A stretch of 64,000 nucleotides of DNA. Source: Escherichia coli. GTDB taxonomy: Bacteria > Pseudomonadota > Gammaproteobacteria > Enterobacterales > Enterobacteriaceae. Position numbers: made by a program. Of the stretch, positions 60,301 through 64,000 are shown one piece after another (positions within the stretch are counted from its first letter, which is position 1; each line of letters begins with the position of its first letter). Location: the NCBI RefSeq assembly GCF_024298765.1, contig NZ_CP101210.1. One strand, given 5' to 3'.

Positions 60301-63300
60301 TAATGTGACTATGATCCAGGTGGAAATAGGGATAATTATTGCTTTTTAACGAACAAACTGGCGAAGCTGAACAGACTGGCGGCGCTAAATATCAGTTCAA
60401 TTCCCACCAGTGTGGAAACCAGCGTTACCGACACCATCGGCGTTGCACCAAGGAATATCCATGCAATGACGATATCCAGCACACCAATAACGAGCTGTAG
60501 CCAGCTGCCTTTCATTGAACGCTGACGATACCAACTCATCAGGCGAATAACCCCTGCAACACAGAACAAACCGGCAATAAATGCCGCAATGGCAAAAATG
60601 CCCAGCTCCGGTGCGCGGATGAAGAAATAGCCGATCAATAAATAGGCGACTGCGACGAGGAAACCGGATAATACCGGCCAGAAATTATGACTGCGGTTGC
60701 TGAATAACCCGACAATAAGCGCAATGCCCGAGCAGATTAATAATGCACCCACTACTGTGCTTAAAATGTCGCCAGAGACGAACGGAAAACTGATACACAG
60801 CAACCCGACGATAAACAGCAGCACGGCAATAAACTGGATTGCTCTGCGATGTTTTTTAAGCATCTCCAGATCAAACTTCAAAATTGTTGCCTTATCTATA
60901 TATAACATAGAACCACCCTATAAAATTAAGAAGAAAATCCCCTGCTATCAATCTATGCCAAAAACGCGTCTAAGAATGCAGTCGATTTAATAAAAATTTC
61001 CTAATTACAGTATCTGATGCATCTGTAACTCATTGTATTGAAATAAAAATATCTGATTTTGATATTTTCCATCAACATGACATATACAGAAAACCAGGTT
61101 ATAACCTCAGTGTCGAAATTGATTCGTGACGGCTCTTTCACTTTATAGTTGAGGATATTACGATGAAAAAAGTATTAGGCGTTATTCTTGGTGGTCTGCT
61201 TCTTCTGCCAGTTGTGAGCAATGCAGCGGATGCGCAAAAAGCAGCTGATAACAAAAAACCGGTCAACTCCTGGACCTGTGAAGATTTCCTGGCTGTGGAC
61301 GAATCCTTCCAGCCAACTGCAGTTGGTTTTGCTGAAGCGCTGAACAACAAAGATAAACCAGAAGATGCGGTTTTAGATGTTCAGGGTATTGCAACCGTAA
61401 CCCCAGCTATCGTTCAGGCTTGTACTCAGGATAAAAAAGCCAACTTTAAAGATAAAGTTAAAGGCGAATGGGACAAAATTAAGAAAGATATGTAATTCCG
61501 GGAATGCGTTACATCGTACTTCCTTGCATATTGAACAGGCCGGAATATCTTCTTTAAAAGCAGCTATTCCTCCTGTTCATATATAATCTCTATATTGAAT
61601 GGGTTACAAAATGAATATTTCATCTCTCCGTAAAGCGTTTATTTTTATGGGCGCTGTAGCGGCTTTGTCACTGGTGAACGCACAATCTGCGCTGGCAGCC
61701 AATGAATCCGCTAAAGATATGACCTGCCAGGAATTTATTGATCTGAATCCAAAAGCAATGACACCGGTTGCATGGTGGATGCTGCATGAAGAAACAGTAT
61801 ATAAAGGTGGCGATACTGTTACTTTAAATGAAACCGATCTCACTCAAATTCCTAAAGTGATCGAATACTGCAAGAAAAACCCGCAGAAAAATTTGTATAC
61901 CTTCAAAAATCAAGCATCTAATGACTTGCCGAATTAATGAGGTACAAGTAAAAAGGAGTAGCAAGTTGAGCCATCTTGCTGCTCCTTTTTGCATTTTTAT
62001 ATGACAGCAGAATTTATTATACGTCTTATACTCGCAGCAATTGCCTGTGGCGCTATTGGCATGGAAAGGCAAATGCGCGGCAAAGGAGCAGGGTTACGCA
62101 CACATGTATTAATTGGCATGGGAAGCGCCCTGTTTATGATTGTTTCGAAATATGGTTTTGCTGACGTGCTGTCTTTAGGTCACGTCGGACTGGATCCCAG
62201 CCGTATTGCTGCTCAGGTTGTGACGGGCGTCGGGTTTATCGGTGCAGGTAACATTCTCGTTCGTAACCAAAATATTGTAGGTCTGACGACGGCAGCGGAT
62301 ATCTGGGTGACCGCCGCCATTGGTATGGTTATTGGCAGCGGTATGTACGAACTGGGTATTTATGGTTCAGTGATGACCTTGCTGGTGCTGGAAGTCTTCC
62401 ATCAATTAACCTTCCGCCTGATGAACAAAAATTACCATTTACAGCTGACATTAGTGAACGGTAATACGGTATCAATGCTCGACTGGTTTAAGCAGCAAAA
62501 AATAAAAACGGATTTAGTTTCGTTGCAGGAAAATGAAGATCATGAAGTGGTCGCCATTGATATCCAGCTTCATGCCACGACGTCGATAGAAGATCTGTTG
62601 CGATTATTAAAAGGTATGGCAGGGGTGAAAGGCGTTTCAATTAGCTAATCTGTATAGTTATTTATTCGCAGGAGTACCAGTGCGGTACTCCTGTTGGTTT
62701 TAATGATCGAGGACGATCAGTGGTGAATGGTTGGCAGGATCTTTAAGTACGGTAATATCCGCGCCGTAAAGCATGGTCAGCGCCTGCTGTGTCAATACGT
62801 CCTGTGGTTTACCATTTGCGATAACCTTTCCTTTTTGCATTAATACAATACGGTCTGCATAACGCGCGGCAAGATTTAGATCGTGCAATACGCAGCAAAC
62901 ATTGAACTGCCGTTCGTGAACTAACTGGCGTAATAAACGGAACAAGTGCTGCTGATGGTGAATATCCAGCGCCGAAGTTGGTTCATCAAGAAATAACCAT
63001 TTCGGTGAGGGAGTTGGTTCCCAGAGTTGCACCAGCAGGCGCGCTAATTGTACGCGCTGTTGTTCACCACCGGATAATTGCCGATAGTCGCGGTTTGCTA
63101 ACGCCTGACAGTCACATAACGCCATTATTTGTGCTGTTTCATTATCCTGATTACCAGTGCGATGCGGATGCCGCCCCATCTGGATAACTTCTTGTACGCT
63201 GAATGGAAACGCCATGTGGCTATTTTGACGCATCACGGCCCGGTGTTTCGCCAGTTCAGTAATCGACCATTCATTTAATGGCTTATTAAACAACCGACAT

Positions 63301-64000
63301 TCGCCGCTATCAGGTTGAAGATAGCCGGTTAACTGGCGAAGCAGCGTAGATTTTCCCGCACCATTAGGGCCGAGAATGGCAACAATTTCCCCACCGGGAA
63401 AAGTCAGCGAGACATTATCAGTCAGACGCCGCCCCTGAAGGCTATAAACCAGATTCTGGGCGCTGATCATGTGATCCTCCGGTTGCGCAGAATCAACCAC
63501 ATAAAATAAGGACCACCAAGCAGGCTGGTTAATAATCCCACGGGCATTTCTGCTGGCTGTACCAGCGTGCGGGCAAGCGTGTCTGCCATCAGCAATAAAC
63601 AGGCTCCGGCGAGGGCGGAGCAAGGGATTAGCCAGCGGTGATTTGCTCCGGTAGTCATGCGAATCAGATGCGGGATCACCAGGCCAATAAAGCCGATAAT
63701 GCCGCTTACCGATACGGCGGCACCAACGAGCAGTGAGCTCACTAACAGTAATTGCTGGCGTTTACGCTTAACGTTCACGCCGAGGTAATGGGCTTCTTCA
63801 TCACCGAGCTGCAGTAAATTCAGCGTTCCGGCGAGACAAGTTGTTGCGATAATGGCCGGTAGGATGAATGAACTGGCAACCAATAACGTCGGCCATTGCG
63901 CCTGTCCAAGATTGCCCATCATCCACAATGTGAGTTGTCGTAGCTGCTGCTCATCGCCGATATAGCTCAGGATGCCGATCGCTGCGCCGCACAGGGCATT

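Follow-up and report, generated by a model that had tools for sequence, protein, structure and literature searches.

The closest known systems to the locus analyzed here are the shu locus of Shigella dysenteriae (Wyckoff et al., 1998) and the chu locus of Escherichia coli O157:H7. The chu/shu heme locus described by Wyckoff et al. (1998) is cited in a passage of the 2018 xenoGI report (PMC5799925), where it is placed in the middle of the acid fitness island, with O157:H7 and E. albertii recorded as carrying it and K-12 and E. fergusonii as lacking it. Carter et al. (2022; PMC9144400) compared an island of ~22 kb that includes chuSA and chuTWXYU with one of ~13 kb that does not, and in O157:H7 EDL933 the literature treats chu as part of an enlarged acid fitness island of ~22 kb. 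In the phylogenetic model of xenoGI 3 (2023; PMC10362622) the heme locus was deleted on the K-12 lineage. The roles of ShuT and ShuUV are summarized in PMC4746246, and the use of host heme is a recognized fitness and virulence trait (PMC4746246).

More distant relatives of the importer with solved structures are HmuUV of Yersinia pestis (PDB 4G1U) and BhuUV-T of Burkholderia cenocepacia (PDB 5B57/5B58), in which the permease is likewise of the FecCD type; accessory genes and genomic context of both are unlike those of ChuUV. In the chu system, heme is bound at the outer membrane by the TonB-dependent receptor ChuA and taken through the periplasm by ChuT. Import is by ChuU2V2, an ABC importer of type II (BtuCD/HmuUV-like) in which ATP hydrolysis by ChuV moves heme to the cytoplasm; cytoplasmic heme is handled or degraded by ChuS, ChuW, ChuX, and ChuY.

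The window, a stretch of 64,000 nucleotides of E. coli DNA, includes the first 1,347 bp of a chu/shu segment (62654–64000), the remainder of which lies past the window end. The segment is preceded by yhiD (62001–62648, + strand), which encodes an MgtC/SapB-family inner-membrane protein of 215 amino acids (NF007431, 399 bits over its full length; Pfam MgtC), carries the same name in the annotation of near-identical genomes, and was found in 5,419 of 5,426 complete E. coli genomes; it is the final gene common to chu-positive and chu-negative E. coli on this side. Both the ORF list and the raw sequence put the yhiD stop codon (TAA) at 62646–62648 and, beyond a spacer of exactly 51 bp (62649–62699), the stop codon of the convergent ABC ATPase gene, chuV (62700–63470, − strand), which is the distance and orientation that the original prediction had given. 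Upstream of chuV and co-oriented with it is the permease gene chuU (63467–64000, − strand), which the window end cuts. The boundary had been described as an edge between core and accessory DNA; its "core" side, however, is itself the low-GC acid fitness island, which makes the segment an insert within an island and not such an edge.

The rest of the cluster was read from other genomes. Over its last 25 kb the window is matched at a rounded 100% identity by many complete E. coli chromosomes; the genome of strain 104 shows 3 mismatches to it in 25,000 bases, all of them outside the junction region. Gene order in strain 104 is chuV, chuU, chuY, hutX (chuX), hutW (chuW), shuT (chuT), chuA–chuS, dctR, and slp, with chuA–chuS divergent from the genes on the chuT side; an O157:H7 genome and a rodent isolate are annotated with an identical order. 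Every junction-carrying genome examined has chuA, chuT, chuS, chuW, chuX, and chuY, at positions past the window end, and from the near-identical genomes we infer that chuY through chuS are present in this strain as well. Its promoter regions lie past the window end too; a Fur-regulated divergent promoter region of ~680 bp is expected between chuT and chuA, and dctR would follow ~9.06 kb from position 62654. The cluster sits between yhiD and dctR (yhiF), the left side of this position being read in the window and the right side in three other genomes. The two genes in the window had been proposed to be the terminal genes of a chu/shu cluster, a proposal that would have failed had no further heme genes followed; gene families and synteny in strain 104, where chuY-chuX-chuW-chuT, chuA-chuS, and then dctR-slp follow, agree with it. 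Compared with the chu locus of O157:H7, the order from yhiD through chuV-chuU-chuY-chuX-chuW-chuT and chuA-chuS to dctR is as here, the locus occupies the same position, its left junction matches base for base, and nucleotide identity over the overlap is 98.4%; allelic differences amount to 1–3% per gene, and there is otherwise no difference of substance.

The junction had been expected within 62649–62699. It does fall inside that interval, and comparison with K-12 refines it to a single point, between 62653 and 62654, 5 bp past the yhiD stop, on which megablast, direct comparison with K-12, and alignment agree. The last 5 bp common to chu-positive and chu-negative haplotypes are TCTGT (62649–62653; megablast and K-12 comparison), and every listed megablast match to a chu-negative genome stops at query base 754 (window position 62653). 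Across this point the window reads AGCTAATCTGT followed by ATAGTTATTT, whereas K-12 reads AGCTAATCTGT followed by GTGGCAGCGT. On the right, homology starts again at, or one base before, the dctR stop codon. The segment between these limits measures 9,059 bp (~9.06 kb) in strain 104 (35654–44712 of the retrieved locus) and holds eight genes. In K-12 MG1655 yhiD and dctR are 41 bp apart with no chu genes between them, as the original prediction had stated for K-12. At the K-12-type empty site the sequence shared with the chu-bearing form extends 5 bp beyond the yhiD stop and resumes one base ahead of that of dctR. The flanks of the two forms are 97–99% identical, but a spacer of ~36 bp of unrelated sequence with a weak hairpin (z = −0.5) takes the place of the 9.06 kb. 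On these alignments the difference between the chu-bearing and empty forms is a replacement of the ~36-bp spacer, not a clean insertion or deletion.

A residue of chu in the K-12 spacer was looked for and rejected: local alignment against the whole segment in both orientations did no better than chance (194 of 200 shuffles reached the same score). At the two 80-bp ends of the segment the match was marginal (122 of 2,000 shuffles as good). The query spacer in this scar test was offset by 4 bases, which leaves the outcome unaltered, the best match being a gapped one of 16 columns that includes 8 consecutive identical bases.

Any match to the junction query was obtained in 5,420 genomes. The chu junction at the yhiD–dctR site occurs in 2,237 of the 5,426 complete E. 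coli genomes (41%) and the empty junction in 3,179, so that the site is essentially two-state in complete E. coli. A second allele of the empty site, of the strain N96 type, occurs in 6 E. coli genomes; its spacer is 67% identical to that of K-12, between flanks that are 98–99% identical. The spacer of the empty site clearly evolves fast or is exchanged, as K-12 and N96 illustrate. The cluster had been associated with pathogenic lineages, and O157:H7 carries it, but it is not restricted to pathogens, being found also in isolates from rodent faeces, river water, and wastewater effluent.

Outgroup loci were collected from species-representative genomes with a DNA-pattern scan for the back-translated YhiD motif TGVGFIGAGNI, which returned five Escherichia loci, a small sample that does not include E. 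albertii, E. fergusonii, or E. marmotae. The empty site is found in E. whittamii and Escherichia sp. E1V33, with flanks 76–90% identical to those of E. coli; in-register alignment of their spacers to those of K-12 and N96 gives 52–62% identity, significant in each case; among the four spacers of K-12, N96, E1V33, and E. whittamii identity ranges from 52 to 88%, with P between 2e-3 and 7e-15 against a chance match of 30%. Two genomes labelled E. coli yet only ~90% identical to that species, SCPM-O-B-8794 and E69, have chuV and chuU beside yhiD and the same left junction, TAATCTGT followed by AT. Their chuV and chuU show 90–93% nucleotide identity, comparable with the 86–96% of most flanking genes, an exception among the flanks being gadE of SCPM-O-B-8794 at 97.7%. 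The interval is mosaic between species: in E69, gadE and hdeB cluster with E. whittamii (96% identity), but yhiD (86%) does not. A third form is found in Escherichia sp. MOD1-EC7003, where yhiD is followed by ~90 bp, which we take to be ERIC-like, and then by a match to the chuT–chuA intergenic region; chuTWXYUV appear to be missing from this genome.

We are highly confident that the junction is the left boundary of a chu/shu segment inside the acid fitness island; its origin probably lies in an old replacement followed by recombinational exchange. The chu block would have replaced the ~36-bp yhiD–dctR spacer, from 5 bp past the yhiD stop up to one base short of that of dctR, and a replacement without mobile-element machinery points to one old illegitimate event, which may have been a gain or a loss of chu. 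Later transfer of both forms between lineages was probably by ordinary homologous recombination in the conserved genes on either side, the simplest explanation of the patchy distribution. Judged from the outgroup alignments, the two forms both seem to be older than the diversification of E. coli, although arguments about age from spacer divergence are weak, the spacer being short and evolving fast or being exchanged. More tentatively, and with somewhat less than an even chance of being right, we put forward a reading in which chu presence or absence is an old polymorphism that crosses species, not a recent loss on the K-12 lineage, with the ~36-bp spacer original and chu the later insert. An old polymorphism would involve one replacement before the split of E. 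coli, E. whittamii, and the cryptic lineages, after which the forms persisted or were exchanged.

The main alternative holds that the heme locus is original to the acid fitness island and was lost in a single recent clean deletion toward K-12 (phylogroups A, B1, and C). It is the published reconstruction of xenoGI 3 (PMC10362622), is in keeping with the discussion in PMC5799925 of chu inside the island of E. albertii, and accommodates the chu form in deep-branching genomes, where it has diverged to about the same extent as most genes beside it. The ~36 bp of the empty site, which have no significant match in the chu segment, would not, however, arise from a simple deletion; nor is the empty form specific to the K-12 lineage, since a spacer in register is present in E. 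whittamii and E1V33, and a very different second allele of the empty site occurs in the 6 E. coli genomes of the N96 type. Orthology of the spacer across species together with its two alleles is thus a poor fit with a recent clean deletion. Base composition, 50.4% GC for chu against 37–40% for the flanks, also speaks against joint arrival of locus and island, weakly, as the island is mosaic. We regard a recent clean deletion as unlikely.

The patchy presence and absence of chu and its sharp, identical breakpoints could also be expected of a classical mobile genomic island moved by a site-specific recombinase or a transposon, an explanation that the remaining evidence makes highly improbable. 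The only tRNA gene in the window is that for tRNA-Pro at 6463–6539, ~56 kb from the junction, and no transposase or integrase is annotated within the eight genes or beside them in strain 104, O157:H7, or the rodent isolate; the tRNA scan and the annotation of the near-identical genome thus confirm the predicted lack of an insertion sequence or tRNA at the boundary. The ends of the segment have no target-site duplication and no terminal direct or inverted repeats of at least 9 bp, and a single 8-mer common to both ends is at chance level (266 of 500 shuffles). The GC content of the segment (50.4%) equals the genome average (window mean, 50.9%), so that none of the features of a classical mobile genomic or pathogenicity island (tRNA, integrase or transposase, repeats, GC deviation) was found. 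By contrast, GC content is 39.6% from gadE to yhiD and 37.2% in dctR-slp; by this measure it is the acid-fitness-island side that looks foreign and the chu insert that looks native.

The identity of the two genes in the window is firm. ChuV (ShuV/HmuV), the ATPase of the heme ABC importer, has 256 amino acids and is named from NF010068, PDB 4G1U, and the RefSeq product name. Its gene runs on the − strand from an ATG at 63470–63468, with GGAGGA 5 nt upstream, to a stop codon at 62700–62702. Motif reading located Walker A (GPNGAGKS, residues 34–41, 63348–63371, − strand), the Q-loop, the signature (LSGGEQQR, residues 132–139, 63054–63077, − strand), Walker B (LFLDEPTS, 62973–62996, − strand), the D-loop, and the H-loop (VLHDLN, − strand), the full set for a nucleotide-binding domain of a type II importer (BtuCD/HmuUV class). 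The protein scores 103.5 bits against Pfam ABC_tran and 395.5 bits against the NCBIfam equivalog NF010068, "heme ABC transporter ATP-binding protein" (cutoff 261), the only NCBIfam model that it matches above the model's own cutoff; the FecE, FhuC, BtuD, and enterobactin models are far below. Its closest solved relative is Y. pestis HmuV (4G1U; full-length alignment, E = 1.9e-95, all ABC motifs present), followed by Burkholderia BhuV (full-length alignment, E = 1.8e-48); no structure of ChuUV itself was among the matches in the structure search. Heme specificity of the ATPase, as originally proposed, is borne out by the model and the nearest structure, and assignment to another transporter family is contradicted by NF010068.

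ChuU (ShuU), the permease of the importer, is represented in the window by its C-terminal 177 of 330 amino acids (63470–64000), which match Pfam FecCD (PF01032) with 200 bits over profile positions 140–311 of 311, in agreement with the predicted FecCD-type permease upstream of the ATPase; near-identical genomes annotate a "heme ABC transporter permease ShuU/ChuU" of 993 bp. The chuU TGA overlaps the chuV ATG as ATGA, read directly, and by this overlap the two genes would be translationally coupled. That the pair might belong to some other FecCD-type system (siderophore, dicitrate, or vitamin B12) is effectively refuted: the permease fragment has BtuC and FecC models, all below cutoff, as its best NCBIfam matches with no heme-permease model among them, and the ATPase also matches FecE, FhuC, and BtuD models, but only for NF010068 is the curated cutoff passed (395.5 against 261), HmuV from the hemin importer of Yersinia is the nearest protein of solved structure, and chuT, chuA, and chuS are syntenic in the near-identical genome.

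The 51-bp spacer between yhiD and chuV contains a hairpin with a perfect 11-bp stem and a 5-nt loop (62668–62694, GCAGGAGTACC-AGTGC-GGTACTCCTGT; terminator scan). On the + strand it is followed by TGGTTTTAAT, and on the − strand by an A/U-rich stretch rather than a U run; predicted RNA folding energies are −19.4 kcal/mol (z = −4.1) for the + strand and −17.9 kcal/mol (z = −5.8) for the − strand. The hairpin is thus a predicted terminator, likely for yhiD and possibly for chuV, and would most likely end the yhiD transcript and perhaps that of chuV. The stem is the same in the divergent chu-positive genomes SCPM-O-B-8794 and E69, where one loop base differs, which is conservation without covariation; a search of the spacer against Rfam gave no match at the gathering threshold, and the K-12 spacer has no significant structure (z = −0.5). 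With the hairpin to the right of the breakpoint, chu-positive strains get their likely yhiD terminator from insert DNA. A hairpin lies at either end of the chu block: GCAGGAGTACC...GGTACTCCTGC at the left end and the chuS terminator at the right end.

A chu/shu insert beside yhiD is ordinary and already described; what is added here is a base-exact breakpoint, the replacement of a ~36-bp spacer, and the orthology of that spacer across species together with its two alleles in E. coli. Presence or absence of chuA is the classic first marker of Clermont phylogroup typing, and the junction marks the strain as chuA-type, although the practical value of this is small; the breakpoint at 62653/62654 and the two empty-site alleles could likewise serve as typing markers. 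Predicted from its genes, the strain would use host heme. Should both forms prove to predate E. coli, as the outgroup data suggest, the published explanation by a simple K-12-lineage deletion would need revision, and the locus would be an example of a long-lived gene-content polymorphism maintained without a mobile element.

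The empty site, the chu-negative form of the locus in which a short spacer alone separates yhiD from dctR, exists in more than one version. In E. coli N96 (NZ_CM169999.1; about 6146..6187 of its locus, L004), the yhiD-dctR spacer is a second allele, GTGGTAGCGAAATCACACTCGCCACCCTACTGGAAAT, which shares only 67% identity with the K-12 allele, whereas the flanks are 98-99% identical. This N96-type spacer is carried by exactly 6 of the 3,179 empty-site genomes (N96 and five others), and the YhiD and DctR proteins of N96 are identical to the versions found in chu-positive strains.

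The yhiD locus of Escherichia sp. MOD1-EC7003, found in a DNA-pattern scan of species-representative genomes, is a third form. There (L009, 5880..6126), yhiD is followed by TAATCTGTATA and then by about 90 bp that appear ERIC/IRU-like; beyond this stretch, the sequence has 89% identity to the chuT-chuA intergenic region. The position of this intergenic match after yhiD implies that chuTWXYUV would have been lost from MOD1-EC7003, and chuA is possibly retained beyond the end of L009.

A disrupted match to the yhiD/chu junction query was found in E. coli FCI1 (NZ_CM172811.1, 229257..232900), where a match of 100% (rounded) is interrupted by an IS4-like IS50R-family transposase, which divides it in two, and the annotation beneath the match has two MgtC/SapB (yhiD) features; this looks like a Tn5/IS50 insertion in FCI1. 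Base composition around the chu segment was read from the near-identical strain 104 (L005, 32000..47700, corresponding to the window from 59000 onward): the chu insert has a GC content of 50.4%, equal to the genome average, and its immediate flanks are AT-rich (gadE-hdeDAB-yhiD, 39.6% GC; dctR-slp, 37.2% GC), the reverse of the usual pattern.

Elsewhere in the window, Rfam matches to RtT (7889..8022), naRNA4 (8116..8196), ES036 (10432..10474), GadY (52928..53041), and ES205 upstream of gadE (58821..58892) are sRNAs or REP-derived elements expected for this region of E. coli. Between bcsG and yhjV, a 483-bp unit is repeated in tandem (16175..18024; 3.8 copies, 96% match), and the repeats contain four minus-strand genes for the rdlD antitoxin sRNA (16270, 16753, 17236, and 17719). 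The repeats make up an ldr/rdl type I toxin-antitoxin array in expanded form, with four rdlD genes at the site where K-12 has one ldrD/rdlD pair.
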